From Acutalibacteraceae bacterium (GTDB lineage: Bacteria > Bacillota > Clostridia > Oscillospirales > Acutalibacteraceae), in NCBI GenBank assembly GCA_045617665.1, contig JAZLIZ010000053.1, positions 2,844 to 66,843 on the forward strand: a stretch of DNA of 64,000 nt, in the 5' to 3' direction. Position numbers and translations under genes: made by a program. This document shows positions 8,013-64,000 of the stretch, piece after piece. The notes under the pieces were generated by a model. That model saw only the letters and a list, made by a program, of their open reading frames with translations, was not told where the DNA came from and made no database searches. The first letter of the stretch is position 1, and every line of letters begins with the position of its first letter.

Positions 8013-8053
8013 TTTTATTTCTTCCTTTTAGAAAATTCGGTATCTGCCGGAAT

Positions 8054-8911
8054 TCATTTTTCGGTTAACGCCTTTTCGCAGAGTGTTGCCACACGGCAGG
8101 CACGGATGTAAGCCTGAGAAAGGTAGTCAACCGTACTCATTCTGCTGTAAAAATCATTTTCGTGGCGGTTGGGCTTTGAGGTTTTGCTCAGCTCAAAGGT
8201 CAGAGTATCGGTATATCCGCACTTTGCAAGCCTGTGCGCAAGCTCCTGCCAGTCACGGATTCCGTCAAAGGGGAGCAGATGCAAATCATCCGTCCAGTAA
8301 ATTCTGCCGTTATAATCGGAAATGCCGAGATTGTCGTTAATATGGGTCGAGAAAAGATATTTTCCGTAATCCTCAAGCAGATTTTTTGAATAGTTATAGC
8401 ACATCTCGTGGCCTGTATCCAGACAGAAGCCGCAGGTTTTTCCGCCACCGAAGTTGTCGAGAATTTCTCTTAAAAATTCTTCACCCTCCGTATTTTCAAA
8501 GGCGATTTTAACTCCGCACTTTTCCGCTTCTTTTATGATACCGTGGTATCTTTCAAGCCCTGCCGGGTTAGGCTTTAAGTCCGAATCAAAGCCGATGAAA
8601 GCATGAGAAACCATAATCGGAATTTCATTCTGCTCACAGGCGTGAATACAGGCAATAAGCTCATCATAAGCGATTTTGATTTTTTCTTCGTCACAGTCCC
8701 ACAGGTCATCCGTTTTGTTAAACGGAGCGTGAACGGACTGCACCTCAAGACCGCAGCTTTTTGCTTCCTTAACCCATTCGGTAAGGGGAGCATCCTTGCT
8801 CCACGGCGTAAATACGGCATCAAAGCCTGCTTCTTTTATAAGTTTAATCTGGTCTGTATACGGTACTCCGAACTCGGAGCCGAGACCGAGACACAATTTT
8901 CTTTTATACAT
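8054..8911 (-). CDS. Sugar phosphate isomerase/epimerase (TIM barrel, AP endonuclease 2 family)
   Basis: AFENT, CLDTGH, THINDN, HLLPFDG motifs. Confidence 0.8.
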   Translation of the reverse strand: MYKRKLCLGLGSEFGVPYTDQIKLIKEAGFDAVFTPWSKDAPLTEWVKEAKSCGLEVQSVHAPFNKTDDLWDCDEEKIKIAYDELIACIHACEQNEIPIMVSHAFIGFDSDLKPNPAGLERYHGIIKEAEKCGVKIAFENTEGEEFLREILDNFGGGKTCGFCLDTGHEMCYNYSKNLLEDYGKYLFSTHINDNLGISDYNGRIYWTDDLHLLPFDGIRDWQELAHRLAKCGYTDTLTFELSKTSKPNRHENDFYSRMSTVDYLSQAYIRACRVATLCEKALTEK

Positions 8912-9656
8912 TTTTAAGTACCTTCATAACCTCAAAGGGCTGGTCAATAAACGGGAAATGGCCTGCATCCTCTATGATGAAAAGCTCGGAGTCCGGAATA
9001 ATCGAGTGCATTTTTTCGCCGTCTGCAACGGGTGTTGCGGTATCGTTTCTGCCCCATATAAGCAATGCACCTGCCGGAATGAATTTTATCAGCTCCTCCA
9101 AATCCTCATTAACGCTTTTTACAAGAGTCTGCCTCATAACGGGGGAGGCGTTTGCATAATCCGCAGAGCCGTATTTTTTTTGCAGTTTTTCAACTGCACC
9201 GGGGCAAAGCACCGTCATAAGCTTTTTGCTGTAAAACTTTTTAAGCTTTTTATATTTTTCCTGCCTTGCCTTTGCTTCACCGCTTAATTCGTGCTTTAAG
9301 CCTGCGGCATCAATGAGTATAACCTTTTTTATGCTTAATTCTTTTCTTGCACAAAGCTTCAGAATGATTCTTCCGCCGTAGGAGTGACCGCAGACTGTGA
9401 AATCTTCAAGCCCGGTTTTGCTTGCAAATTCCGTAACAAAATCAGCGTAATCATCAACACTCCAGGGCTCACCGGGTTCGGGGGTTACGCCGAAGCCGGG
9501 CAGCTCAAGGGCGTAAATCTTATACCTTTCACTTAACGACTTGACAGGCATATTGTAAGCCGCCGTTACCGCACCCCAGCCCGGGAGCAAAAGTAAGGGC
9601 TCACCCCTGCCGTAAACCTGATATTCGGTTTTGATTCCTTTGACTTCAAGAATCAT
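8904..9656 (-). CDS. Alpha/beta hydrolase
   Basis: LLPGWG, LPGFG, GHSYGG, IWGRND, DAGHFPF. Confidence 0.88.
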   Translation of the reverse strand: MILEVKGIKTEYQVYGRGEPLLLLPGWGAVTAAYNMPVKSLSERYKIYALELPGFGVTPEPGEPWSVDDYADFVTEFASKTGLEDFTVCGHSYGGRIILKLCARKELSIKKVILIDAAGLKHELSGEAKARQEKYKKLKKFYSKKLMTVLCPGAVEKLQKKYGSADYANASPVMRQTLVKSVNEDLEELIKFIPAGALLIWGRNDTATPVADGEKMHSIIPDSELFIIEDAGHFPFIDQPFEVMKVLKNV

Positions 9657-9884
9657 AGTTTATTTCTCCGCCTTGACTGTTAAGATAGATTTTTGCCCTA
9701 ATCAGAATATAAAAACCCATTATCAGTTTATTATACACGATATTCGTATAAATACAAGATTTAATATTGATTTTATTTTGGTTATTTTCATTAATTTTCA
9801 TTAACACAGGATTGAATAACCGCCTTAATTGTGTTATCATTACAGTGAATATATGCTTTAATCAAGCAATTCGGAGGAAGATAA

Positions 9885-11426
9885 ATGAAAAAATATGATT
9901 ACATCGTTGTCGGCTCAGGCTGTGCCGGACTCAGTGCCGCCCTTGAACTGGCCATCAGCAACAGAAAGGTTTTGCTGATTGAACAGCACAATATCCCCGG
10001 AGGATGTGCAACAGGCTTTGTAAGGGGCAGATTTGAATTTGACCCCTCACTCCACGAGCTTTGCGGTGTCGGTTCTGCCGAAAATCCCGGCGGAACAGGG
10101 CTTATTTTCAAACGCTACGGCGTTAATGTTGAATGGAATGAAGCAACGGACTGCTTCAGAGTAATTTCAAAATATTCGGACGGCGAAAAAATGGATGTAA
10201 CAATGCCCTCCGGCAAAGAAGCATTTATTGACAAAATGGAATATTATGTGCCCGGCTCAAGACCGTCAATGGAAAGATTTTTTGAGCTGACACAGAATAT
10301 TGAGGACGGACTTGCTTACCTCGGCGGCGGTAAAATAAATCCGGCAGATATTATAAAAAAATATATGCCTATGGTACGCTCCGGCGGATACAATACATCT
10401 GATGTTCTCAATGCCCTTGATTTGCCCGAAAGAGCAAAGGATATTCTTTCTGTTTACTGGTCATACCTCGGTGTTGATATGGATAAGCTTTCATTCCTCC
10501 ATTACGCCTCAATGGTAAACAGTTATGTTAAATTCTCCGCCTACTATCCGAAGCATACATCCCACGAAATTTCCGTAAAAATGGTTGAAAGATTTACTGA
10601 ACTCGGTGGTGAGGTTATGATGGGCTGCCGTGCAGAAAAATTCATCTTTAACGGTGACAAATGCTGCGGAGCAGAAACAAACCTCGGCACATTTGAAGCA
10701 AAATACGGCGTTCTTGCCAATATCAACCCCGATATTATTTACGGAAAAATGATTCCGAAGGAGCTTGTTCCCGCAAGAGAAAAGAAGCTTTGCGCCGCAA
10801 GAAAAAGAAAACTCGGCGCAAGAATGTTCACCGCTTATTTCGGACTTAATAAAACGGCAGAGGAGCTGGGAATTAAGGATTACAGCATTTTCTTCCCGCA
10901 GTCCTCGGATTCCGTTAAGGAATATGAATCGCTTAAAAAGATTGACACAAACGAGTATTCAATCTTCCTTTGCTATAATATTCACAATCCCGGTTTTTCA
11001 CCCGATGGCACCTGTGTCTGCTCGTTTACGACGATGTTTACCTCCGGCGAGGATTTCAATGACCTTGACGAAACCGAATATTACAAGCTGAAAACAAAAA
11101 TGGCAAAGAGGTTTATTAATACCCTCAAGGAAAAGGCGGGTATTGATATTTCCGGAGCGATTGAAGAAATCACAGTTGCTTCTCCCTATACATTTGCCCG
11201 TTACCTGAATGCGCCAGAGGGTGGCGTTTACGGTTATGAAACCACAGAGTGGGACGGCATTATTTCAAGAACGATTGAAATGACAATGGGCAAGGATTAC
11301 AAGGTTAAGGGACTTTACCCCATAGGTACAAACGGTGTCCGTGGTGACGGATATTCCTCAGCCTATACCGATGGTCAGATTCTCGCTCAGAGAGCATTGG
11401 CAAGCTTTGAAAAGGAGGGCAAATAA
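9885..11426 (+). CDS. FAD-dependent oxidoreductase, phytoene desaturase (CrtI)/retinol saturase-like
   Basis: IVVGSGCAGLSAA Rossmann motif, EQHNIPGGCATGFVRGRFEFDPSLH, SPYTFARY..GGVYG. Confidence 0.8.
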   Translation: MKKYDYIVVGSGCAGLSAALELAISNRKVLLIEQHNIPGGCATGFVRGRFEFDPSLHELCGVGSAENPGGTGLIFKRYGVNVEWNEATDCFRVISKYSDGEKMDVTMPSGKEAFIDKMEYYVPGSRPSMERFFELTQNIEDGLAYLGGGKINPADIIKKYMPMVRSGGYNTSDVLNALDLPERAKDILSVYWSYLGVDMDKLSFLHYASMVNSYVKFSAYYPKHTSHEISVKMVERFTELGGEVMMGCRAEKFIFNGDKCCGAETNLGTFEAKYGVLANINPDIIYGKMIPKELVPAREKKLCAARKRKLGARMFTAYFGLNKTAEELGIKDYSIFFPQSSDSVKEYESLKKIDTNEYSIFLCYNIHNPGFSPDGTCVCSFTTMFTSGEDFNDLDETEYYKLKTKMAKRFINTLKEKAGIDISGAIEEITVASPYTFARYLNAPEGGVYGYETTEWDGIISRTIEMTMGKDYKVKGLYPIGTNGVRGDGYSSAYTDGQILAQRALASFEKEGK

Positions 11427-11428
11427 TT

Positions 11429-12643
11429 ATGGCAATGAAATTCAGAGTTAATTCGGGTGCTGCCGACCTTAAAAAGTTTGTCGGACTTATCACTGACCGT
11501 GAAAATGCAATCAAAAACGCTCCCGAAAATGAAATAAACCCAACATTCAAAATAAATGAAATTGCAAGGGAACTGCACCCCGATTATCAGAAAATGGTGA
11601 TTACGGAAATAGTCAGTCACGAGGGCGCAGATGCAAAAACCTTTGTTTTCAAAAAGGCGGACGGCTCAAAGGCGGCGTTTTTCAGAGCCGGTCAGTATGT
11701 GAGCGTGCTTCTTAAAATGGGTGAAAGCCTTGTTACAAGACCTTATTCGATTTGCTCATCACCTATGGAGGCAAAGCAGGGTATTGTTAAAATCACCGTC
11801 AGAAATGTTAAGGACGGTTATGCCGCTCCCTATATGCTTGAAAACTTCAGGGTCGGTGATAATGTTACTCTTTCCGGCCCGGACGGCACATTTTATTATG
11901 AGCCTCTGCGTGATGCTCAAACCGTTATTGCTCTTGCAGGCGGCAGCGGTATAACACCTTTCCTTTCAATGGCATATGCAATCCGTGACGGACTTGAGGA
12001 TTTCAATTTAACAATTCTTTTCGGCTCAAGAAACGAAGAAAATGTACTCTTCAAAAAAGAGCTTGATGAAATAAGCGCGGAGTGCGAAAAGGTCAAAATT
12101 GTTCATATACTTTCGGATGAAGAAAAGGACGGCTATGAGCACGGCTTTATAAATGCAGAGCTTATTAAGAAATATGCACCTGCTGACGGTAAATATTCCG
12201 TATTTATCTGCGGTCCCGAAGCAATGTATCGCTTTGCCGAAAAAGAGGTTGAAAAGCTCGGCATTGAGAAAAAATATTTCCGCCGTGAGCTTCTCGGCGT
12301 TACAAAAAATGTTTATGCTTTGCCCGATTATCCCGGGGAAGCAAAGGAAAAGACCTTCAAGGTTACAGTTGTTATCGGTGAAAATGAATGGGTTGTTGAT
12401 GCAAAATCCGATGAAACCGTTTTAACGGCTGTTGAAAGAGCCGGTATTCCTGCTCCCTCCCGTTGCAGAAGCGGTGAATGCGGCTGGTGCAGAAGCAAGC
12501 TTGTCAGCGGAACGGTTTATATTCCGGCGGAAAACGATACAGGCAGAAGATATACCGACAAGGAATGCGGTTATATACATCCCTGTGCATCCTTCCCCAC
12601 ATCAGACCTTAAAATAGCGGTTCCCGGTTCATATATGAAATAA
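11429..12643 (+). CDS. FAD/NAD(P)-binding ferredoxin reductase with C-terminal 2Fe-2S domain
   Basis: RPYSICSSP, AGGSGITPFLSM, FICGP, CRSGECGWC...HPC. Confidence 0.87.
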   Translation: MAMKFRVNSGAADLKKFVGLITDRENAIKNAPENEINPTFKINEIARELHPDYQKMVITEIVSHEGADAKTFVFKKADGSKAAFFRAGQYVSVLLKMGESLVTRPYSICSSPMEAKQGIVKITVRNVKDGYAAPYMLENFRVGDNVTLSGPDGTFYYEPLRDAQTVIALAGGSGITPFLSMAYAIRDGLEDFNLTILFGSRNEENVLFKKELDEISAECEKVKIVHILSDEEKDGYEHGFINAELIKKYAPADGKYSVFICGPEAMYRFAEKEVEKLGIEKKYFRRELLGVTKNVYALPDYPGEAKEKTFKVTVVIGENEWVVDAKSDETVLTAVERAGIPAPSRCRSGECGWCRSKLVSGTVYIPAENDTGRRYTDKECGYIHPCASFPTSDLKIAVPGSYMK

Positions 12644-12665
12644 ATTCAGAAAAGAGAGTGAGCTT

Positions 12666-13598
12666 ATGAACAGAAAAGAGTATTCAATTCCGTCAACATC
12701 CGGTGTTTGCAATTTGTTTATCCGCTGCTGGATTCCCGATGAGCCGAAAGCGGTTTTTCAGATTACTCACGGTATGGCGGAGCACGGCGAAAGATATGAG
12801 GATTTTGCTTCACACCTTTGCTCAAAGGGCTTTGCGGTAATTGTTGATGACCATATCGGTCACGGCAAATCCGTTAATTCCGATGATGATTTAGGTTATT
12901 TCGGAGATAGGGACGGCTGGAATGCCTTTGTTGAGGATGAAAAGGCTGTTGCCGAGCTTGCAAAAAAAGAATTTCCGGGCTTGCCGATTATATTCTACGG
13001 TCACAGTATGGGCTCGTTTATAGGCAGAGAGTATATCAGAAGATACGGAAGCGACGAAGCAATCAAGGGAGCAATCATCTGCGGAACTGCCGGTAAAAAC
13101 CCTGCCGCCGCCGTTGCAATAGGCATTGCAGGAGCAATAGCAAAGGCAAAAGGAAATAAATATAAAAGTGATTTTATAAACAACCTTGCTTTCGGCACAT
13201 ATAACAAGAGGATTGAAAATCCCGAAACCCCGTTTGACTGGCTGACCAACGATAAAGAAATCGTAAATAAGTATATTGCCGATAAGTATTGCGGATTTTT
13301 ATTTTCCGCAGTCGGATACAGGGATTTATTCACCGTTCTTAATACCGTTTCTTCAAGGAAATGCTTTGATGAAACAGATAAGAATTTACCCGTTCTGCTT
13401 ACGGCAGGTCTTGATGACCCTGTCGGTGCATACGGTAAGGGTGTAAAAGAGGTTTATAACAATTATAAAAACGCAGGCGTTAAGGATTTAACTCTTAAGC
13501 TCTGGGAAAATATGCGCCACGAGATTCACAATGAGCCCGACAGAGAAAAGGTTTATGAATACCTTTCCGTATGGGCGCTCAATAAAGCTGAGGCGTAA
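12666..13598 (+). CDS. Lysophospholipase/monoacylglycerol lipase-like alpha/beta hydrolase
   Basis: HGMAEHGERY, DHIGHG, GHSMGS, MRHEIHNE. Confidence 0.88.
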   Translation: MNRKEYSIPSTSGVCNLFIRCWIPDEPKAVFQITHGMAEHGERYEDFASHLCSKGFAVIVDDHIGHGKSVNSDDDLGYFGDRDGWNAFVEDEKAVAELAKKEFPGLPIIFYGHSMGSFIGREYIRRYGSDEAIKGAIICGTAGKNPAAAVAIGIAGAIAKAKGNKYKSDFINNLAFGTYNKRIENPETPFDWLTNDKEIVNKYIADKYCGFLFSAVGYRDLFTVLNTVSSRKCFDETDKNLPVLLTAGLDDPVGAYGKGVKEVYNNYKNAGVKDLTLKLWENMRHEIHNEPDREKVYEYLSVWALNKAEA

Positions 13599-21283: not shown

Positions 21284-22324
21284 ATGGAAAAGCCTGTTTT
21301 GAAATTCAACAATGAGGGAAAATTCAGAATACTTATGGTTTCCGATTTTCACTCTGCAAAAAACAAAAAACTGCCGGAGGATTATTCCGGCAAGATGATA
21401 AAGGGCATTGATGCTCTTATTGAAAATACGAATCCCGATTTTGTTTTTATCGGCGGTGACCAGTGCATAGATGCTTCTTCAATTGAGGAAGCAAAAGCAG
21501 AAATGTCAAGACTGATTGAGCCTGTTTTGAGAAGAAAGCTTCCGTGGGCTGCCTGCTTCGGTAATCACGATAATGAAATCGGCTTGCCTGTCTGCGAAGA
21601 AGAAAAGGCTTATGAAATGATACCGGGCTGTCTTAATGAGGCAGGGGATGAAGAAATAGACGGAACAGGCAATTTTCGTATTCCCGTTTATGATAAAGAT
21701 GGTAAAGAGCTTAAATTCAATCTTTTTGCCCTTGATTCTCACAGAGAAATAACGGATTTGATTGAAAAATTCAATCTTGATAAGGATACCTGCTTTATTT
21801 TGCCACACCATTTTAACGAGAACGCAACAGGCTGTACTCCCACATTTGAACAGGTTATGTGGTACTATAATACCTCAAAGCAGATTGAAAAGGAGCAGGG
21901 CAAAAAAATCCCTGCGATTATGTTTATGCATATCCCTCTGCCGGAGCTTCTGCATATTTTCAGAAATCCGGAGCAGTGTGATGCAACAGGCAACAAGAGA
22001 GAGGCAAGCGGATGCTGTGAGCTTAATTTCGGCTTGTTCGGTGCGGCTCTGCAAAGAGGAGATGTTAAGGGCTTTTTCTTCGGCCATGAGCATCTGATTG
22101 ATATACAGGGTAAATACTGCGGAATTACCATGGCACAGGATGCCGCAATCGGCTATAATATGTCTGCCCACGATGATTTAAGAGGGGGCAGGGTGATTGA
22201 CCTTTTTGAGGACGGAGCTCTTGAAACAAGAGCAGTTAAGCTGATTGATATTCTCGGCAGAGAGGCTATGCGCCGCCGGGATTATTTTGAGGGCGGATGC
22301 AAATATTTCATCAGAGATTTATAA
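21284..22324 (+). CDS. Metallophosphoesterase (Dcr2/purple acid phosphatase-like)
   Basis: VSDFH, GGDQ, WAACFGNHD, FMHIPLPE, FFGHEH. Confidence 0.85.
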   Translation: MEKPVLKFNNEGKFRILMVSDFHSAKNKKLPEDYSGKMIKGIDALIENTNPDFVFIGGDQCIDASSIEEAKAEMSRLIEPVLRRKLPWAACFGNHDNEIGLPVCEEEKAYEMIPGCLNEAGDEEIDGTGNFRIPVYDKDGKELKFNLFALDSHREITDLIEKFNLDKDTCFILPHHFNENATGCTPTFEQVMWYYNTSKQIEKEQGKKIPAIMFMHIPLPELLHIFRNPEQCDATGNKREASGCCELNFGLFGAALQRGDVKGFFFGHEHLIDIQGKYCGITMAQDAAIGYNMSAHDDLRGGRVIDLFEDGALETRAVKLIDILGREAMRRRDYFEGGCKYFIRDL

Positions 22325-23413: not shown

Positions 23414-24517
23414 TTATTGCATATTTTCGCTGTTTCTGTGTCTTTCCTGTGCAAAAGAGCCGTTACGGTCAATTTCCATTTTAACATAGCCCTGAAGCCA
23501 GTCTTTTTCTTCATAACCGAGCTTGCTTTCGGCGGTGTATGAGCCGTAACCGGAGGGCTGAAGATAACTCAGCAGTATTCCTTCATATTCAAAGCCGAAA
23601 TCGTTCAGATGGTCATGGCCGAAGAATACAGCCTGTGTTGAGCCCATAATTCTGATTGCTTCAAATAAGCCGGAATCAAAGCCGGATTCACAAATGCCCT
23701 CTCTCTTTTCACCGTAAAGGAACTGACGGCTTTCGTATTGCTGTTCCACCTGAGGCAGGGGAATATGAATAACCATTATTGATTTGAAATCACCGTATGC
23801 AAGCTTTGTTGAGCTGACCTTGTCGGTGTACCATTTAATCTGTGAGGTTTTAACGCCGTCATAGGGGTCTTCATCATCGGGAATGCCGTATTCCGCCTTT
23901 GTATCGGGCAGAACCTCATCGCCCGTATCAAGGAAGAAGAAGCTTTCACAGAGGGTGTTATCGCTGTTGAGAATGTTTAACTGATAGTTGCCGTCACCCC
24001 ATATATCCTCCGGGCCCTCAAGCATAAGGCAATGGTCATAGGATGAAAAGACATCAATCATTTCCGAACGGTTGAGTGAGGTGCTGTTATCTCCCTCGTG
24101 GTTACCGTGACAGCCTGCCCAGTAAACACCGAGATTTTCAAAAATCTGTGCAAGCTGATTACATCTTTTTTTGTTGAAGCCGGAGGTGACGGTATCACCG
24201 CCGAAAATAACAAGGTCGGGTTTTTCTTTAACAATGTTATTTACGATATTTGCAACCGTAATTTTCGAGGTTTTGTTTTTTCCGTCAAGGTGAATATCGG
24301 TAAAGAAAAGCACCTTTATTTTTTCTTCTCCCTTGTTGCGGACTGTAACGGTATCCTCTGTTTTCGAAACAACCTCAAGGTTATCTGTGACAATGCTCTG
24401 AATTGATTCAATATCGTAATTCAGAGGGTGGGGCAAAAAAGAATAGCCTATACTGCCGCCGATTATGAGAAGAACGAGAATAACTGCCGGGATAATGATT
24501 TTTAACTTCTTTTTCAT
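23414..24517 (-). CDS. Membrane-anchored metallophosphoesterase (Dcr2-like)
   Basis: N-terminal TM helix, FTDIH, FGGDT, WAGCHGNHE, HIPLP, FFGHDHLND. Confidence 0.85.
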   Translation of the reverse strand: MKKKLKIIIPAVILVLLIIGGSIGYSFLPHPLNYDIESIQSIVTDNLEVVSKTEDTVTVRNKGEEKIKVLFFTDIHLDGKNKTSKITVANIVNNIVKEKPDLVIFGGDTVTSGFNKKRCNQLAQIFENLGVYWAGCHGNHEGDNSTSLNRSEMIDVFSSYDHCLMLEGPEDIWGDGNYQLNILNSDNTLCESFFFLDTGDEVLPDTKAEYGIPDDEDPYDGVKTSQIKWYTDKVSSTKLAYGDFKSIMVIHIPLPQVEQQYESRQFLYGEKREGICESGFDSGLFEAIRIMGSTQAVFFGHDHLNDFGFEYEGILLSYLQPSGYGSYTAESKLGYEEKDWLQGYVKMEIDRNGSFAQERHRNSENMQ

Positions 24518-24585
24518 AGTTACACCTGCTTTCAAAAACACCGCCATCTGATGATGACGGTGTGGCTGATGAAAATTTGCTGAGC

Positions 24586-28812: not shown

Positions 28813-29967
28813 ATGCCTTCAATCAGAGAATATATCTCAGAATTCGGCAATGTCAGCTTTTGCAATCGTCCTTTTGGTGATGCGGATGCACTTGCTCTCT
28901 GCGAGGTAACCTATATGCCCTTTGAGAGCATTGTCAGTGAAAGGTTTTCGGATGAGCCTGTTCCGTTTAAGGAAGCGGCTGAAAGGCTTTTTACCGCAAG
29001 AAGTGAAAAGCATCAGAAGCTCGGGCTTATGATTACCGCCGTACCGAGTAAGGATATGACGGCAATGAGCAGGCTCACCCGTTTTAACGAAATGAAAATT
29101 GTTGCCTGCAAGGGAGTTTACAGCAAAAGACCGGCTCTTCAGTTCGGCGCCGCAACAATTATTCTGCCGGACGGAACGCTTGTTGTCTGCTTCAGAGGAA
29201 CAAACGATGATATAGCAGGCTGGCAGGAGGATGTTGAGCTGTTCACCAATAAGGGAACGGCATCCTATACCCTTTGTATTGATTACATTGAAAATGCGGC
29301 AAAGCACCTTGAGGGTGATATTATTGTTATCGGTCACTCAAAGGGCGGCAATGTGGGGCTTTATGCCGCACTTAACTGCAGCGAAGAAACGAGAAAGAGA
29401 ATAAAGGCTGTTTATAACCATGACGGCCCCGGCTTCTGGAATTATGACCTTTTCAAAACCGAGGCTTACAGTGAAATTCTGCCCTGTTACAGGCATTATA
29501 TTCCCTCATCATCATTTGTGGGAGTTATGCTTGCCCATGATTACGATTACAAGGTAGTCAGGAGCAGTAAGCACCTCGGCCCCGTTCAGCACGATTTAGG
29601 CACATGGCAGATTGAAAACGGTGAGCTTGTTTTTGTGAGCGATACCGATAAGCTTTCAAAGATTACCGATGTATTTCTTGCAAAGCTTACATCAAGGGCG
29701 GCTGATGAAAATTATAAAAACGCTCTTAACAAAACGCTTGCAGCTCTGGCAGAGGGAACGGGTCAGAAAACTCTTACGGACTTTGCAAAGCACATACCCT
29801 CATCTGTCTGCGGAATGGTTAAGGGCTGGAAATCCCTTGATGAAAAAACAAAAGCAGATTTCAAGGATGCTTTCAGCGGCTCGGTTGAACTGCTCAAGGA
29901 AACCGTAACGGAAATTAAAAACGGTATGAATCCCGAAGAAATAACAAAAAATCTTTTTAAGTGGTAA
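28813..29967 (+). CDS. DUF2974 (Mbeg1-like) lipase-fold protein
   Basis: FRGTNDDIAGWQED, GHSKGGN, HDGPGF. Confidence 0.87.
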   Translation: MPSIREYISEFGNVSFCNRPFGDADALALCEVTYMPFESIVSERFSDEPVPFKEAAERLFTARSEKHQKLGLMITAVPSKDMTAMSRLTRFNEMKIVACKGVYSKRPALQFGAATIILPDGTLVVCFRGTNDDIAGWQEDVELFTNKGTASYTLCIDYIENAAKHLEGDIIVIGHSKGGNVGLYAALNCSEETRKRIKAVYNHDGPGFWNYDLFKTEAYSEILPCYRHYIPSSSFVGVMLAHDYDYKVVRSSKHLGPVQHDLGTWQIENGELVFVSDTDKLSKITDVFLAKLTSRAADENYKNALNKTLAALAEGTGQKTLTDFAKHIPSSVCGMVKGWKSLDEKTKADFKDAFSGSVELLKETVTEIKNGMNPEEITKNLFKW

Positions 29968-31065: not shown

Positions 31066-32079
31066 TTAAAAGGTGGCTTTATTTACTGTGGTATTTATTA
31101 TCTCTTTCAGCTTTTCAGCCATAAAAAAGTGGCCTAAATCGTTGGGGTGTGTTCTGTCAGTGGTGCAGACCTCACGGTATTCATCCGGGAAATATGAAAG
31201 ACCGTCAATGAAATAAACATTTTCATCACCGCTGTTTTTTGCGTTCATATATGTTTGAAAAACGGTATCGTGCCTTTCCTTTGTTTCGGGCATATCGTCA
31301 TAGGGCTTTGTCATCATTATTACCGGGGTGTCGGGCTGTGACTGCCTGAAAATTTTGAAGAATTTTTCGTGAGTTTTTTTCAAATGTCCGGCATTCGGAG
31401 CATTGTGGTCATAATCATAAACAAAAATACTGCAATCTGTTTTTGCAATGTATTCAGCCATTGCTTCTTCACCCCTTGCAGAGCCGGAAAAACCGAGGTT
31501 GCAGAAATCCGCATCAAAAAGCCTTGAAATCAGAGCAGGGTAGGCGTTCTGTGAGGATGTGTGACCGTTTTCCGTGATTGATGAGCCGTAAAAAATTATA
31601 GGCTTACCGCCTGCGAACGAATAGGGTGTGGGAGCAAAAATATACGCATTATCATCAATTTCAAAATCAATATCAAGCACCTCCGGGTTTCTCGGCAGAA
31701 ATACGGTGATTTCATTTGTGCCGCCGGGCAGACTGAATGTGCCGTAAATTTCATTTTCATCGTATGATTTTTCGGCGGAGATTATTCCGTAATAGCTTGA
31801 TGTTTTTCTTTCACCCACATAAATCGCACCGACATTTGCCTGATAAAATGACATACCTCTGTCGGTGTAAACATCATTAAGCTTGATGTTGATTTTGAAG
31901 GTGTCGGCATCTGTTCTCAAACAGATTCTTGTGCCGGTCGGGTGCTTGCTTAAGCCCTTATAAACCTCCGGCAGCCTTGCAATAACATCATTTGGCAGTC
32001 TTTGAATTTTATCGCCTTTTTTATAGCCGTAAATCCCGTGTATTTCACAGGGGCAGTCAAGATAATTTACCTTTTTCAT
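31066..32079 (-). CDS. SGNH/GDSL hydrolase
   Basis: YGSSIT, NLGFSGSARGE, YDYDHN, DRTHPNDLG. Confidence 0.88.
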   Translation of the reverse strand: MKKVNYLDCPCEIHGIYGYKKGDKIQRLPNDVIARLPEVYKGLSKHPTGTRICLRTDADTFKINIKLNDVYTDRGMSFYQANVGAIYVGERKTSSYYGIISAEKSYDENEIYGTFSLPGGTNEITVFLPRNPEVLDIDFEIDDNAYIFAPTPYSFAGGKPIIFYGSSITENGHTSSQNAYPALISRLFDADFCNLGFSGSARGEEAMAEYIAKTDCSIFVYDYDHNAPNAGHLKKTHEKFFKIFRQSQPDTPVIMMTKPYDDMPETKERHDTVFQTYMNAKNSGDENVYFIDGLSYFPDEYREVCTTDRTHPNDLGHFFMAEKLKEIINTTVNKATF

Positions 32080-32372
32080 CTTCTTTTACCTTAAAACTTT
32101 CTTTTCATATCTTTATATGAACGATTTTCGAAAATGGCTACAACTTTTTTGAAAAAATTTTGAAAAAATCTCAAAATAGTTGCCCCAACCCGCAGTTACA
32201 ATAAATCATTATAGCATATAAAACCTGCTTGTAAAGATGAAAACCCGAAAATAATTCAGTTTGAAAAAACCGCCAAATATTATTAAAAAACCATACAAAT
32301 ATTAACTCTTGCATTAAAGATGCGTTTATGTTATATTATAAAAAATTAAAATAGAGAGATGTGGTGTTTTTT

Positions 32373-34307
32373 GTGAAAAAGTTTTTATCCGTTGTGCTCA
32401 CAATTATAATTGCTTTATCTGCCTGCTCGGTTGCCGCTTACGGCATTGATGACGGCGTTGAAATAACCGAATACCCGGTCATTATGGTTGCAGGCTACAG
32501 CTCAACCAATCTCTTTGTTGAGGCAGAGGACGGCTCTCTCGGTGATAAGCTTTGGGGGCTCGGTGTTGAGGATTTTCTGCCGTTTCTTCTCGGCAATATT
32601 GCCAAAATCGGCATAGGTCTCGGTAAGGCTGTTTTCAATAAACCGGAACAGCTTGCAAGGGTTGTCGGCGAGGGTCTGATTGATATACTCGGCGATATGG
32701 CTTGCAATGATGACGGCACGCCCGTCAACAAAACAAGAGTAATGTTCCCCACCGCAGAGGAAAGCAACTGTGCCGTTATGTTTGAAGAATACGGAAATTA
32801 TAAGGATTATCAGTTTGAAACCGATATTATGGGTCTTGCCCGTACCTATGTAGGCGCCGAAAAAATCTATAATTTCAATGTGGATTGGCGTATGGGCGCA
32901 GAATACTGTGCCGACAGGCTTGATGAATATATTCAGCAGGTTAAGGCTTTTTCGGATTGCGACAAGGTAAATATTCTTGCCGTCAGCCACGGCGGTCAGG
33001 TTACGGGAGCTTATCTTGTTAAATACGGCTATAAGCAGGATGTAAACAATGCGGTTATGACCGTTCCGGCTCTTAAGGGCGCAGGTGTGCTCTATGACCT
33101 TTTCAGCAGAAATATAAAGTTTGATGAATTGAATTTAATTTATTTCATTGAAAACGGACTTGTGCTTGAGGATGATTTTCACTGGCTTGTTGAAGCGCAG
33201 CAGCTGGGTTTCCTTGACGAAGTTTTCAATCTTCTTGTTCCCTATATCTTTGAGGTCGGCGGCAACTGGGGCAGCGTCTGGGATTTCTGCCCGAGCGATA
33301 TTTATGAAGAGATGAAAGCAAAGTGGCTTGATGAAGCCGCAAATGCGGAACTTATCGCAAAAAGCGACAGAATGCACTATGAAATAATGCCGGAGTTTTC
33401 AACCGCATTTAAGAAATGCAATGATGAATACGGTATGAATGTTTCCATAGTTGCCGGAACTGATATAAATATGACAACCGGCTGTGCCGTAAACGGTGAC
33501 GGAATTATTTACACCGCCTCTTCAACCGGCGCAACTGTTGCACCCCACGGCGAAAGGTTTGCAGACGGCTATGCTCAGGTTAATGACTGCGGCGGCAAAT
33601 ATAAGGTTTCACCTGCCATGACGGTTGATGCTTCAACAGCCTATCTGCCTGATAACACATGGTTTGTTGAGGGGCTTTTCCACGGAATGACCTTCTGGGA
33701 TGATTACACAAAGGAGCTTATGATGCTTCTCACCCTCACAAATGAGATTGATGATGTTTATTCAAATCCGGCTTATCCCCAGTTCCACGAATCAAGCAAT
33801 GCGGATTATGCCGTATGGGGCTGCTTTGATAAATCGGTTGAGGGTTATCTTTCAGCTGATGACAGTAAAATTATCATAAAGAATCTTTCAAAGAAAAAGA
33901 TTCCTCTGATTTTGCTCGGCGTTACCGCTGACGGCATCGACCTTGAATTTGATGTGAATATTAAAAACAAATTCATCAAGGCAGGGGAGAGCGTTGAAAT
34001 TCCGTTTAAGGGTGAAATTCCCGCAGTCAGCGCAAAAAGAATCAGTATAACCTTTACCTATGCCGCAGTCGGCTCATTAACGCCCCTCGGCCAGAGAACT
34101 ATGAGCTTTACCGTTATGAACGGCGAAAAGGCGGAGTATGACGGCAGTAAGAGCTGTTCAGCCTATGCCGAAACTCCCTTTGATAAATCAAAGCTTTCAT
34201 TTATGAAAAAATGGCTTGTTGATAACGGAAGTTATAATTTTGTTTCGATGATTTACACCATTATTTATGAATGGTTTAACAGCGTAAAGAGGCTGCTTGC
34301 CTTTTAA
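32373..34307 (+). CDS. Secreted lipase-like alpha/beta hydrolase (LCAT/PGAP1-like) with C-terminal extension
   Basis: Signal peptide, IMVAGY, YNFNVDWR, AVSHGG nucleophile motif; likely GTG start at 32373. Confidence 0.72.
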   Translation: MKKFLSVVLTIIIALSACSVAAYGIDDGVEITEYPVIMVAGYSSTNLFVEAEDGSLGDKLWGLGVEDFLPFLLGNIAKIGIGLGKAVFNKPEQLARVVGEGLIDILGDMACNDDGTPVNKTRVMFPTAEESNCAVMFEEYGNYKDYQFETDIMGLARTYVGAEKIYNFNVDWRMGAEYCADRLDEYIQQVKAFSDCDKVNILAVSHGGQVTGAYLVKYGYKQDVNNAVMTVPALKGAGVLYDLFSRNIKFDELNLIYFIENGLVLEDDFHWLVEAQQLGFLDEVFNLLVPYIFEVGGNWGSVWDFCPSDIYEEMKAKWLDEAANAELIAKSDRMHYEIMPEFSTAFKKCNDEYGMNVSIVAGTDINMTTGCAVNGDGIIYTASSTGATVAPHGERFADGYAQVNDCGGKYKVSPAMTVDASTAYLPDNTWFVEGLFHGMTFWDDYTKELMMLLTLTNEIDDVYSNPAYPQFHESSNADYAVWGCFDKSVEGYLSADDSKIIIKNLSKKKIPLILLGVTADGIDLEFDVNIKNKFIKAGESVEIPFKGEIPAVSAKRISITFTYAAVGSLTPLGQRTMSFTVMNGEKAEYDGSKSCSAYAETPFDKSKLSFMKKWLVDNGSYNFVSMIYTIIYEWFNSVKRLLAF

Positions 34308-34352: not shown

Positions 34353-35222
34353 GTGCAGTATGTAATAATGGACCTTGAATGGAATAATACCTATGCAAAG
34401 AAAACAGCGGGCTTCATTAACGAGATAATTGAAATCGGCGCAATTAAGCTCGATTGCAATTTCAGACCGGCAGATTCCTTTGAATGTATTATCCGTTCTC
34501 AAATAGGCCGTAAGCTCAGGGGCAGCGTTAAAAAGCTTACTCATCTTACAAATGAAGATATAAGCACAGGCGTTCCCTTTACAAAGGCATTCGGTCTTTT
34601 CCGCAAATGGATTGGTGAAACTGATACCGTCATACTCACCTGGGGTGACGGCGATATAAGAGTGCTGATTGAAAATTACTCATACCTCAACGGTATTACG
34701 GTTATTCCTTTTCTCAGAAAATACTGCGATTTACAAAAATACTTTCAAAACAGAATGAACGGTGACCCCGGTCAACAGCCGGGCTTAACTGCTGCGGCGG
34801 AGGCGCTTGATATTCCGCCGGATAAATATGCCCACCACAGGGCGCTTGGTGACAGCCTGCTTACAGGCGACATTTTCACCGCTCTTTATGACAGGGAATC
34901 CTTTGAAAAAGAGATTTATGTTTGCAATGAGGAGTTTTATGACAGACTTCTTTTCAAGGCAAAGGTAATAAAGAGCCTCGAAAATCCCCTTGTTGATAAA
35001 AAAAGACTTGAGCATTACTGCGATTCCTGCGGAAATAAATGCGAAAGACTGACTGGCTGGAAATTCAGCTGTCAATATTTCAGAGCACAGTTCAGATGTG
35101 ACGATTGCGACACCGTTTACGGCATTAAGGTCAGATTTAAGAAAAAATATGACGGCGTTGATTTCAAAAAAATCGTTTCGGTTATTGACCCCGAAGAAGA
35201 CGAAGAAGATGACGATGAATAG
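34353..35222 (+). CDS. DEDDh 3'-5' exonuclease (KapD-like) with C-terminal Cys-rich region
   Basis: MDLEWN, IIEIGA, WGDGD, HRALGDS; CDSC..CDDC. Confidence 0.85.
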   Translation: MQYVIMDLEWNNTYAKKTAGFINEIIEIGAIKLDCNFRPADSFECIIRSQIGRKLRGSVKKLTHLTNEDISTGVPFTKAFGLFRKWIGETDTVILTWGDGDIRVLIENYSYLNGITVIPFLRKYCDLQKYFQNRMNGDPGQQPGLTAAAEALDIPPDKYAHHRALGDSLLTGDIFTALYDRESFEKEIYVCNEEFYDRLLFKAKVIKSLENPLVDKKRLEHYCDSCGNKCERLTGWKFSCQYFRAQFRCDDCDTVYGIKVRFKKKYDGVDFKKIVSVIDPEEDEEDDDE

Positions 35223-35241
35223 AGTACGGTACGGAGAGAAT

Positions 35242-36342
35242 ATGAAAAAATTTTCTGTTAGATTTGCTTCAATTATCATCGCTTTGGCGGTTATGCTTAC
35301 CCCGGCTTTATCGTGCAGTGCTTCAAGCACGGATTCCTTTGAAAATCTGATGAAATATTTACAGTTCAATGAGGAACATAATTTCAGCAATTCCATTGAT
35401 GTTACAATGGATGAGGCAACAAAGGAAATCTGCGACAGAATTGACGAAGCTTCACCGCTTGACCTTGAGCTTCTTGTCGGCAATCTGCCGAAGCTTCAGC
35501 CCATTGCAAGATTCTTTTCGGGCGTTCTCGGCATAAACACTCCGGAGTTTCATAAAAAGCTGAACGATGCCGCTATGGAATATTATCATACCGGCAATGA
35601 TACAGCAGGACTGTTTCTTCAGCTTGCAGGTGTGTTTATCGGTGTTCTTGACAGTATGGAAATTCACCTTGAGCCGACAAAAGAAAATGAAAGCCAGTTT
35701 ATTCTTAATCTGAATTATCTTGACGGCGTTGAGCAAATTCATATTCCCTCGATTTATTATGACAGTCAAACAGGTGAGGTTTACGGCAGAAGCGATAAGG
35801 GTATTGCGGATATAGGCTATAACTTTAATCTCGAAGATATGCTTGTCTATGCTCCCAATGACTGCTGGATGCGTGACACGGGCTTTTGCGTTGAATATGA
35901 TATTCTTGCAAACGGGCTCGGTATGTTTGATTACGATACAAGACGCTTCTATTTTGAATACGGCGATAAGGAATGGCTTATTCAGGCATGGAAAGGTAAC
36001 TATGTTATTTCCAACGGTGCCGAAATAGGCGTATATAACAGAGATAAGATTAAATTCGGAACATATTACGATGTTGTTACAGACAAAGAAAGGCTTGATA
36101 TGTCAATTTCGTTATACCGTTCCGGTGATTTGCTTTTCTCAACCGAAAAGAAGCCTACATGGTGGGCGAATGGCTTTCAGCTCAGCGATGAGATTTATGA
36201 AGCCGATGAATTGACCCTGTGCGGTGAAATAACCTTTGAAAATGAAGAAATGCTTCAGGCGTTCGTAAACGCTGTACAGAACGAGAGGCACAATGATGTT
36301 AAATTCTCCGTCAACGGATTAACAGTATCCGTTGAATGGTGA
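35242..36342 (+). CDS. Secreted DUF4474-like protein
   Basis: Signal peptide; DCWMRDTGFCVEYD, EWLIQAWKGNY, GAEIGVY, WWANGF. Confidence 0.7.
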   Translation: MKKFSVRFASIIIALAVMLTPALSCSASSTDSFENLMKYLQFNEEHNFSNSIDVTMDEATKEICDRIDEASPLDLELLVGNLPKLQPIARFFSGVLGINTPEFHKKLNDAAMEYYHTGNDTAGLFLQLAGVFIGVLDSMEIHLEPTKENESQFILNLNYLDGVEQIHIPSIYYDSQTGEVYGRSDKGIADIGYNFNLEDMLVYAPNDCWMRDTGFCVEYDILANGLGMFDYDTRRFYFEYGDKEWLIQAWKGNYVISNGAEIGVYNRDKIKFGTYYDVVTDKERLDMSISLYRSGDLLFSTEKKPTWWANGFQLSDEIYEADELTLCGEITFENEEMLQAFVNAVQNERHNDVKFSVNGLTVSVEW

Positions 36343-60784: not shown

Positions 60785-61282
60785 ATGAAATACTGTGTAA
60801 ACTGCGGCGCATCGCTTGATGATGATGCAAAATTCTGCGTTTCGTGCGGCACAAAGGTCGAGGAGCAGAATGTTAATTCGGGCGAATATAACAGCACCGA
60901 AAGTTATGAGGGTCAGACTGTAAAGGACAAGGTGTTTGATGCCTTTGAAAACACGGAGGATACCACTGCCGATTTTGACCCCTATGATGTTGAGCATAAT
61001 AAGCTTCTTGCTCTGCTCTCATATTTAAATATTCTGTTTATCGTTCCCCTTGTTGCGGCTCCCGATTCAAAATTTGCAAGATTTCACGCAAACCAGGGGC
61101 TTGTGCTTTTCCTTTTCAGCTTAATAACAAAGGTTGTTTTTGCAGTTCCGGTTGTCGGCTGGATTGTCGGCGCCGTTTTTGAGGTGATAATCGTTATCGG
61201 CCTCATTTCGGGCATTATTAATGTTCTTAAGGGCAAGGCAAAGGAACTGCCCGTAATCGGAAAGTACAGGATAATCAAATAA
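60785..61282 (+). CDS. Zinc-ribbon / DUF4870-like membrane protein
   Basis: YCVNCG..FCVSCG, FARFHANQGL, KELPVIG. Confidence 0.82.
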   Translation: MKYCVNCGASLDDDAKFCVSCGTKVEEQNVNSGEYNSTESYEGQTVKDKVFDAFENTEDTTADFDPYDVEHNKLLALLSYLNILFIVPLVAAPDSKFARFHANQGLVLFLFSLITKVVFAVPVVGWIVGAVFEVIIVIGLISGIINVLKGKAKELPVIGKYRIIK

Positions 61283-62427
61283 TGAAAAATGAACTTAAAT
61301 TTAATGCTGACGGCAAGCTTAAAATACTTCAGGTCAGCGACCCGCAGGATTTGAAGTTTGTTCGCAAAGCAATGGTTGAAATGCTTGATGCGGCTTATGA
61401 TAAAATTCAGCCCGACCTTGTTTTGTTCACAGGCGATAATATTCTCGGTAATCATCTGCTTGATAAAAGAATAGGTGACGGCCATTTTGCAGAGGGCAAA
61501 GAGGCTACACTGCAGAGTATGAAGGAATCCATAAGTTATATTATGGAGCCTCTTGAAAAAAGGCAGATTCCCACCGCAATGATTTACGGCAACCATGATG
61601 ATATGAACCTTATCACCAAGGAAGAACAGATTGAAATTTACAGAGCCTATTCCTGCTGTATGGAGATGAATACGGATAATCCGTCTGTTGACTGTGACAC
61701 CTATTCAATCGCCTTAAAGGATGATGAGGGCAGAACTGTATTTAATCTGTTTATGCTTGATTCTGCCTGGCAGGATAATGACGGCGAAAGAAAATGCCAT
61801 TGTGAAATAAAAAAAGAAACCGTTGAATGGTATAAAAAAGAAAGCCAGCGTCTTCGTGATGAAAACGGCGGCGGCAATATTCCGTCAATTATGTTTTTGC
61901 ATATTCCTCTGCCCGAAATATTTGAGCTTACGAAGGAGTGCGGCAAGGATGTTGATTTTGCCATTAAAACTCCCGATGATAAATATATTCACCTCATACC
62001 CGGCAAAGCAAAGGGCTATATGATGGAATATCCGTCTGTCGTAAACGAATCAAACGGACTTTTTGATGCTGTAAAAGGGCAGGGGAATGTAAAGGCAATT
62101 GTCAACGGCCACGACCATATAAATAACTTTGCGGGTACTGTTGACGGCGTTGATTTTATTTCAACCGGCTGTGCTTCATTCCGCTGTTACGGTGACAGCA
62201 GAACAAGGGGCGTTCGCCTTTTTGAAATCAGTAAGGACGGAACATATACAACAAAGTTCTTTACCTATGAGGATTTGTGCGGCAACAGCCTTAAAACAAA
62301 ACTTCATTACTATAATGATGCGGATGAATTTGCCCGCAAAAAATGGACAATAATCGGTGCCGCCGGAGCAGTTGCTCTTGTCGGTATTACCGCCGCAGTA
62401 ATAGTAAAAAAACGCAAAAAGAAATAA
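61282..62427 (+). CDS. Metallophosphoesterase (Dcr2-like) with C-terminal membrane anchor
   Basis: VSDPQ, FTGDN, YGNHD, FLHIPLPE, NGHDHINN; TM helix + KKRKKK. Confidence 0.85.
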   Translation: MKNELKFNADGKLKILQVSDPQDLKFVRKAMVEMLDAAYDKIQPDLVLFTGDNILGNHLLDKRIGDGHFAEGKEATLQSMKESISYIMEPLEKRQIPTAMIYGNHDDMNLITKEEQIEIYRAYSCCMEMNTDNPSVDCDTYSIALKDDEGRTVFNLFMLDSAWQDNDGERKCHCEIKKETVEWYKKESQRLRDENGGGNIPSIMFLHIPLPEIFELTKECGKDVDFAIKTPDDKYIHLIPGKAKGYMMEYPSVVNESNGLFDAVKGQGNVKAIVNGHDHINNFAGTVDGVDFISTGCASFRCYGDSRTRGVRLFEISKDGTYTTKFFTYEDLCGNSLKTKLHYYNDADEFARKKWTIIGAAGAVALVGITAAVIVKKRKKK

Positions 62428-62433
62428 AAAAAT

Positions 62434-62467
62434 ATCCTCCCGAGTCTATGAACTGACTTGGGAGGAT
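62434..62467. terminator. Bidirectional terminator
   Basis: ATCCTCCCGAGTC / GACTTGGGAGGAT. Confidence 0.72.
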
Positions 62468-62483
62468 GAAACTTTTTATTCTG

Positions 62484-62711
62484 TTAACCCTGCTTTTCTT
62501 CTATATATTTTGCAACTTCACCGACGGTGCGCATTTTCATCAGCCTGTTTTCATCAATATTGATGTTAAATTCACTTTCAATAGCAACGGCAATGTTTAC
62601 AATATCAAGCGAATTAAGACCGAGGTCAGACCTTAATTCCGTGTTTTCATCAATAGAATCAGCGTCTGCATCTGCAAAATCAAGAATAAGATTTTTTAAT
62701 TTTTCAAGCAT
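62484..62711 (-). CDS. Acyl carrier protein / thiolation domain
   Basis: DLGLNSLD (phosphopantetheine Ser), IESEFNINI, TVGEVAKYI. Confidence 0.9.
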   Translation of the reverse strand: MLEKLKNLILDFADADADSIDENTELRSDLGLNSLDIVNIAVAIESEFNINIDENRLMKMRTVGEVAKYIEEKQG

Positions 62712-62723
62712 AAGTTTTCTCCT

Positions 62724-64000
62724 TTATGCGAGAGCATTGTAAATTTCTTTTATTTTCATTTCAGGATTTTTACAGCCCATATTAAGCGCCTTAACGGTGT
62801 TTTCGTGAAGAGCGTTTATATTTTCTTCGGTAATATGGTTTGTTCTGTAAAGATAGGCAAATTTAAGAGAATTATTTTTGAAATCTTTCATTGTGTAGGT
62901 GTAGAGGGGCATAACATATCTGCCGATGTTGTAGCCGTTAAATTCATATTTCCAGCCGTTCATAGTGCTTTCCTCAAGCGGAAACCATGAAAACATCATT
63001 GTTGAAGCACCGTCAGCCATACCGTAGTTAAAGATTTCTCCCTCAACATCTCTCCATTCTGTAAAGGGATAATCCTGATGCCTGAATATTTTATATTGCA
63101 ATTCTTTCATTTTGTCAAGTGCTTCGCTGAAAGTTAATTCCGGGTCAAGAATAATCCGCCAGGGCAGGGTGCTTGTCATTGAGCCGCCGCAGCGCTTATC
63201 GGCAAGGGTCTTTCGTCTTGTGCAGAGGGTGACGAAATATGTGTCAATAATGCCGTCATTTACGCTTTCATTCAGCTTTGCAAGGTATAATCTCATACCG
63301 AGCTGAATAAGACATTCGGGCGAAACGCCGTTGTTATCAATATAATCAAGGATTGCACGGCTGTCTTCACTTGAAATGGGTTTTTTCAACAGCTCTGATT
63401 TATCGTGTATCGGGTCAAAGCTTGCCAAAACTCTGAGCTTCGGATTTTTCTTTTTTACTCTTGCTTTTTGCAGCAGCTCCGGGCCGTGAACTCCGTTAAA
63501 AATCGGCGCACCGCCGGATTTGAAAAAGTCTGCGTAAAATTCCTTATCCGCATTGACCTTTTCTTCATCATTTATATATGCAAGCTCTTTTGCGATTGCG
63601 TTTTTGAAGCTTGCAAGAGGCTTCGGCATTTGAGCTTCGCCTGTCAAGGCATCATAAACGGCAAATAAATCCGAAAAGAATACAAAAACTGCGGCGGCAT
63701 CCATTGTTAAATGGTTAACATTGATGTAAATTCCCTGTCTGCCGTCATAGGTGTTAAAGAAAATAAAACGGTATATTTCACCTTTCATATGGTGAACGGT
63801 TTCCTTAGCATCCTTTTCTAAATACCGTTCCTGCTCCTCTTTGGTTGAAAAGCTTAAAACGGGTATATTTTCTTCTTTATATTCATCAAGAAAATACTGG
63901 TAATATTTACCGCTCTTTTTGAAATAACGCAAACGCATACAGTCGTTTCGCTCAATCTCAATATTAAGGGCTTTTTTCATTATTTCAAAATCAACTTTTT
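62724..64000 (-). CDS. Stand-alone NRPS-type condensation domain protein (5' end probably beyond the window)
   Basis: NHLTMDA variant of HHxxxDG, RHQDYPF; frame stays open upstream of ATG 63980 (KVDFEI-M). Confidence 0.82.
   Translation of the reverse strand, partial: KVDFEIMKKALNIEIERNDCMRLRYFKKSGKYYQYFLDEYKEENIPVLSFSTKEEQERYLEKDAKETVHHMKGEIYRFIFFNTYDGRQGIYINVNHLTMDAAAVFVFFSDLFAVYDALTGEAQMPKPLASFKNAIAKELAYINDEEKVNADKEFYADFFKSGGAPIFNGVHGPELLQKARVKKKNPKLRVLASFDPIHDKSELLKKPISSEDSRAILDYIDNNGVSPECLIQLGMRLYLAKLNESVNDGIIDTYFVTLCTRRKTLADKRCGGSMTSTLPWRIILDPELTFSEALDKMKELQYKIFRHQDYPFTEWRDVEGEIFNYGMADGASTMMFSWFPLEESTMNGWKYEFNGYNIGRYVMPLYTYTMKDFKNNSLKFAYLYRTNHITEENINALHENTVKALNMGCKNPEMKIKEIYNALA

Follow-up and report, generated by a model that had tools for sequence, protein, structure and literature searches.

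A ligase, condensation protein and carrier protein operon of an Acutalibacteraceae bacterium is a distant relative of the fatty acid amide systems of gut Clostridia

The stretch of DNA analysed here (64,000 nucleotides, hereafter the window; positions 2,844 to 66,843 of the forward strand of contig JAZLIZ010000053.1, assembly GCA_045617665.1, denoted G000:C53:2844-66843) holds the downstream two-thirds of a three-gene operon on the minus strand. When the contig is read past the window edge (stretch L002, in which 1568-2965 corresponds to window-equivalent positions 62724-64121), the order of the genes is ligase, condensation (C) protein and acyl carrier protein (ACP), tightly coupled and followed by a terminator. 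The free-standing, OaaC-like C protein occupies 62724-64000 of the window (minus strand) and was identified by Pfam family PF00668 and by its match to the structure 12KH. Its open reading frame has its stop at 62724 and runs past the window end to the true start at window-equivalent position 64121 (L002:2965), giving a full length of 465 aa; codons 42-465 lie inside the window, and the ATG at 63980, from which 418 aa would be read, is an internal methionine. The discrete ACP (75 aa, PF00550) lies at 62484-62711 on the same strand, and the 12 bp that separate the ACP start from the stop of the C gene contain an AGGAG ribosome-binding site. The preliminary description had recognized this pair as a C-domain-only gene followed 12 bp later by a discrete carrier; both genes are indeed present, read on the minus strand, and the C gene is longer than the part seen there. 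It had also suggested that an acyl-activating gene might lie beyond the window edge, and such a gene is found directly upstream: a stand-alone AMP-binding, OaaA-like ANL ligase of 518 aa (PF00501; minus strand, L002:2962-4518, window-equivalent 64118-65674, outside the window, in which 63990-64000 is only a window-end marker), the stop of which overlaps the C start by ATGA.

The terminator scan located a hairpin at 62433-62468 (L002 1277-1312, unstranded), with a 14-pair stem, seven GC pairs and T/A runs on both sides, in the interval that separates the ACP gene from the convergent gene for a metallophosphoesterase; judging by its sequence, it is a probable bidirectional terminator closing the operon. 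Downstream of the ACP, there is no acceptor carrier, thioesterase or megasynthase partner, and neither an exporter nor an amine-supplying gene is present in the operon as seen. The upstream view stops with the contig, 660 bp 5' of the ligase, in AT-rich non-coding DNA, so the operon could contain additional genes; up to the contig end, the upstream sequence shows the stand-alone ligase and no multimodular non-ribosomal peptide synthetase (NRPS). The three open reading frames are separate, each with its own start and stop, and do not form the single C-A-T polypeptide of a modular NRPS. Rfam and tRNA scans of the 660-bp region returned nothing above noise. Close to the end of the contig, a perfect hairpin with a 20-bp stem and a plus-strand T tail comes after a (CTGT)7 microsatellite (L002:4860-5002, window-equivalent about 66016-66158); this region has no Rfam match, and the repeat together with the hairpin may have caused the assembly break. 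The GC content of the operon is 40% vs 42.7% for the window, and its composition shows no signal of horizontal transfer.

The 465-aa sequence of the C protein matches PF00668 with an E-value of 1.7e-29 over profile positions 3-444 of 456. The best relative in the PDB is 12KH (phmmer, E = 7.6e-43, residues 5-462), ahead by about 38 orders of magnitude of the next match, tyrocidine synthetase (E = 2.7e-05). The 12KH structure is that of OaaC from Coprococcus eutactus, which acts as the stand-alone C domain in the pathway to oleoyl-aminovaleric acid (PMC13310621). In total, 602 relatives were found, with E-values down to 0, so that the observation of a C gene with an ACP is not due to chance; the closest homologues in the protein search are 97% and 81% identical. 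The AlphaFold model of the C protein (pLDDT 96.5) has the C-domain fold, and its best Foldseek matches are the starter C domains of CDA and RzmA, with TM scores of 0.78-0.80 (CDA, 0.80). Given that the PDB library used in this search ends on 2026-04-08 and apparently predates 12KH, the fold comparison confirms only the C-domain fold, with starter C domains as the nearest.

The catalytic motif of the C protein, as read from the sequence, is NHLTMDA (N136 H137 ... D141 A142; 63696-63716, minus strand). In an alignment of 88 family members, H137 and D141 are invariant. In a census of the motif across the family, the second histidine and the aspartate are invariant or nearly so, the first position can be S, N, F, H, C, D, I or T, and the aspartate is followed by A, S, G or N; internal C domains of NRPS included there have HHxxxDG in 10 of 10 cases. 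Thus, NHLTMDA fits the non-canonical family motif xHxxxD(A/S/G). The preliminary description was right that the catalytic histidine and aspartate are kept, but the asparagine, which it singled out as a replacement of the first histidine, is ordinary for this family given that the position varies freely. A second family trait is an insertion helix, described in OaaC as a 17-residue insertion (Gln214-His224; PMC13310621). In the multiple alignment, the query shares the corresponding block (residues ~205-235 of our protein) with OaaC and relatives, whereas it is gapped in both internal and starter C domains of NRPS, and the AlphaFold model has a helix at 215-223.

The ACP matches PF00550 with an E-value of 1e-14, and its phosphopantetheine serine is S34 in the motif LGLNSLD (codon 62610-62612). 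It scores below the NCBIfam cut-offs for AcpP (62 vs 70-71 bits) and hence is not the housekeeping ACP; a housekeeping-type ACP is encoded on contig C64. The ligase contains PF00501 (E = 3.3e-46) and AMP-binding_C_3 domains, and its top NCBIfam matches are the long-chain-fatty-acid--CoA ligase and MenE families, all under the equivalog cut-offs. In the ligase tree, it falls in the same 9-row clade as OaaA (SH-aLRT 100). A D-alanylation system of the Dlt type was also considered and rejected, given that the ligase resembles fatty-acid/MenE-type ligases and its partner is a C domain rather than an MBOAT protein.

The oaa cluster of Coprococcus eutactus, consisting of OaaA, OaaACP and OaaC, was reportedly described by Chang et al. 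in 2021. For a direct comparison, the protein-search representative P0209, which is OaaC itself (1069 bits to 12KH), was used to retrieve the oaa locus from metagenomes of the human gut, and OaaC, OaaACP and OaaA were read from locus L027. Each protein of the operon aligns end to end with its counterpart: the C protein with OaaC (BLASTP, 25% identity, E = 2e-47, 465 vs 463 aa), the ligase with OaaA (34%, E = 2e-95, 518 vs 519 aa) and the ACP with OaaACP (28%, E = 4e-11, 75 vs 82 aa, with the serine aligned), although identities of only 25-34% are too low for substrate prediction. The two systems thus share three free-standing proteins of near-identical size that are all full-length homologues, the ligase clade, the non-canonical motif xHxxxD(S/A) and the OaaC-type insertion helix; as far as the contig reaches, a thioesterase and an acceptor carrier are not seen here either. 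They differ in gene order (A-C-ACP here, C-ACP-A in oaa), in the motif (NHxxxDA here, DHxxxDS in OaaC), in the deep sub-clade of the C protein and in the host, Acutalibacteraceae of the Oscillospirales here and Lachnospiraceae for oaa. The split adenylation/thiolation/condensation arrangement for fatty-acid amides that the preliminary description proposed is supported by the gene content of the contig and by this homology. The gene that follows OaaA, which also encodes 208 aa, was considered as a phosphopantetheinyl transferase (PPTase) and rejected: it is a TetR-like regulator unrelated to the PPTase of this genome.

The locus has all the features by which a C domain of a fatty acid amide (FAA) pathway has been delineated, namely, similarity to OaaC, a length within 300-520 aa, and an A protein and a carrier encoded next to it as free-standing proteins (PMC13310621). 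Compared by description with the ebf/ecf FAA clusters of Enterocloster bolteae and clostridioformis, which make N-acyl amines and N-acyl lysine (PMC10871352), the operon similarly consists of stand-alone C, T and A proteins, but those clusters additionally contain genes for a PPTase, a lipid-transfer protein of the SCP2-like type and a hydrolase (PMC10871352), none of which is linked to the operon here. The starter C domains CDA-C1 (4JN3/5DUA) and RzmA-Cs (7C1L), the best structural matches and the sister group in the trees, take an acyl donor, as here, but are fused to A-T modules, lack the OaaC-type insertion and use an acyl-CoA or acyl-ACP donor with a carrier-bound aminoacyl acceptor.

To place the C protein among its relatives, an exhaustive protein search (E <= 1e-30) was reduced to 119 clusters at 50% identity, almost all of ~460 aa, and a FastTree phylogeny of 147 rows was built from the stand-alone proteins, C proteins of related genomes and C domains excised from three megasynthases. 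The 134 stand-alone C proteins all group in one clade (support 99), with N-terminal starter C domains as the sister group and internal C domains as the outgroup. Within it, a clade of 115 rows that is free of NRPS domains (support 99) contains both the query and OaaC, the latter being the one characterized FAA C protein in these trees. An IQ-TREE analysis of 63 rows recovered both the split between stand-alone and NRPS domains (SH-aLRT 100) and the clade of the query and OaaC (97). The topology agrees with the published description, in which the FAA clade is nearest to starter C domains. Inside the shared clade, however, the query and OaaC belong to different deep branches, of 69 and 18 rows, respectively, and, together with the 25% identity, this makes any assignment of acceptor class and product an extrapolation from Oaa.

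The C protein is patchily distributed. It is encoded in 15 of the 150 sampled genera of Acutalibacteraceae and, in a sample of 398 other genomes from across the class, in 10, and is absent from the one genome of the same genus that was searched. The nearest genomic relatives that are named are Acutalibacteraceae or Clostridia MAGs, which puts the host in the class Clostridia. Among 24 related loci, an ACP gene is adjacent in 18 and a ligase gene in 16-17, and no other neighbour gene is conserved. The gene order is A-C-ACP in L002, L007, L021 and L023, C-A-ACP in L008-L012, L015 and L017, and C-ACP-A in L019, L020 and L022, as in oaa. In six loci, among them that of the closest relative from the collection of genomes (71% identity), the C gene is an orphan, and given that the nearest relatives are orphans, the C protein may also use other acyl donors. 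In L003 (7992-9395, the 71% relative) and L004-L006 (C gene at about 8001-9389, ~51% identity), no ligase or ACP gene is found within 8 kb; the flanking genes encode SecA, EF-G, oxaloacetate decarboxylase and polysaccharide deacetylase, unrelated housekeeping functions.

Two types of ligase accompany the C proteins, the OaaA type of ~510-520 aa, to which those of the query and L007 belong, and a type of ~585 aa that is found with the nearest non-orphan C cousins of the query. The trees of the C proteins and of the ligases are in conflict, in that the C clade of the query pairs mostly with the ~585-aa ligase (compare L008-L012, L015 and L017 with L002, L007, L021, L023 and L024), and five loci (L015, L021, L023, L024 and L025) encode two ligases each. 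These mismatches and double-ligase loci suggest that FAA clusters have exchanged parts. In genome G145, where the gene order is the same as in the query (L007:602-5160), the ligase is immediately preceded by four genes of the same orientation; three of these resemble NAD-dependent epimerases/reductases, one with the NAD_binding_4 'male sterility' reductase signature, and all four may belong to the G145 cluster.

Taking together the homology, domain content, catalytic residues, operon structure and clade membership described above, we infer the chemistry from that of Oaa and consider it probable that the operon encodes an NRPS-like FAA pathway of the Oaa type. By analogy, the ACP would be converted to the holo form by a PPTase of the Sfp type whose gene lies elsewhere in the genome; the one PPTase found is indeed of this type (208 aa, contig C5). 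The ANL ligase would adenylate a free fatty acid and load it onto the ACP as a thioester. The C protein would then, with His137 as the catalytic residue, promote the reaction of the acyl-ACP thioester with a small amine that diffuses freely, or perhaps with an amino acid, and the N-acyl amide would be released without a thioesterase. The additional proposal of the preliminary description, that many local lipases supply the acyl chains, does not hold. The 15 kb adjoining the operon encode housekeeping proteins, namely, PNPase, a GH38 mannosidase, fumarase, an RlmL-like methyltransferase, a DagK/YegS lipid kinase, a zinc-ribbon protein and a metallophosphoesterase, and, among thirty genes annotated across 21-62 kb of the window, the only two lipase-like ones, for an SGNH/GDSL hydrolase (31066-32079) and an Mbeg1-like hydrolase (28813-29967), are both more than 30 kb from the operon.

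Three other explanations, all less likely than an FAA pathway, deserve consideration. The one that survives best retains the three-protein logic with another acceptor, so that the product would be an ester or an acylated envelope component, lipid or peptide rather than a diffusible N-acyl amine. Members of the C-domain superfamily can form esters, the sub-clade of the query is deep and only 25% identical to OaaC, the closest relatives carry orphan C genes, and both an exporter and an amine-supplying gene are missing from the operon. Nevertheless, the protein retains the catalytic histidine and aspartate as well as the OaaC-type insertion, the operon has no linked gene for a membrane or glycan-handling function, and every characterized member of the stand-alone clade makes amides (PMC13310621, PMC10871352), so that we regard a different acceptor as unlikely. 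A related and broader idea is that the entire deep sub-clade of the query follows a donor/acceptor logic unlike that of the characterized FAA enzymes, with, for example, a housekeeping acyl-ACP as the donor or a non-amine conjugate as the product. This sub-clade is common in Acutalibacteraceae, its members are often orphans or paired with the ~585-aa ligase, and no description of it was found in the literature searched. We consider this idea doubtful; if it is true, the mismatch between the C and ligase trees would reflect parts being mixed in nature in a way that gives rise to new lipid signals.

The second alternative is that the triad serves in trans as a lipo-initiation module for an NRPS, with a lipodipeptide as the product. 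The 2.1-Mb genome encodes a dimodular NRPS-like frame (2433 aa, C-A-T-C-A-T type; contig C19, about 7058-13063, minus strand), G145, the closest relative with the same A-C-ACP order, has a similar dimodular frame of ~2450 aa, and starter C domains form the sister group of the stand-alone clade. However, the C19 protein has its own N-terminal C domain and is encoded on another contig, and the Oaa system is self-sufficient in vitro (PMC13310621). Furthermore, three genomes that are 97-100% complete (G060, G073 and G132) keep the triad in the absence of any other C domain, which argues that the triad acts on its own and renders the lipo-initiation role very unlikely. Finally, a decaying or silent remnant with no product, to which the patchy distribution, the absence from the same-genus genome searched and the contig-end position beside the (CTGT)n repeat might point, is highly improbable in view of the three intact frames, the catalytic residues, the coupled starts, the ribosome-binding site, the terminator and a GC content like that of the surroundings.

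The operon, then, is a distant, uncharacterized Acutalibacteraceae relative of systems already demonstrated in gut Clostridia. FAA pathways make lipids that mimic host signals and act on human GPCRs, and for some of them a link to inflammatory bowel disease has been described (PMC13310621, PMC10871352). In a survey of isolates, 95.4% of FAA clusters were found in Clostridium cluster XIVa (PMC10871352), a group that does not include the Acutalibacteraceae, and no paper connecting Acutalibacteraceae with fatty acid amides turned up in a literature search. The locus and its relatives would place the same three-protein chemistry, by analogy with Oaa, in about 10% of the sampled genera of this family. 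The operon leaves the understanding of the pathway unchanged and adds a candidate for substrate-panel screening.

Apart from the genes discussed above, the window holds a gene for a DUF4474 protein (35098-36342, plus strand), a 648-aa open reading frame with no Pfam match (32361-34307, plus strand) and three genes for calcineurin-like metallophosphoesterases (21284-22324, plus; 23414-24547, minus; 61282-62427, plus). The last of these proteins has a hydrophobic tail at its C terminus, with a KKRKKK anchor after it.
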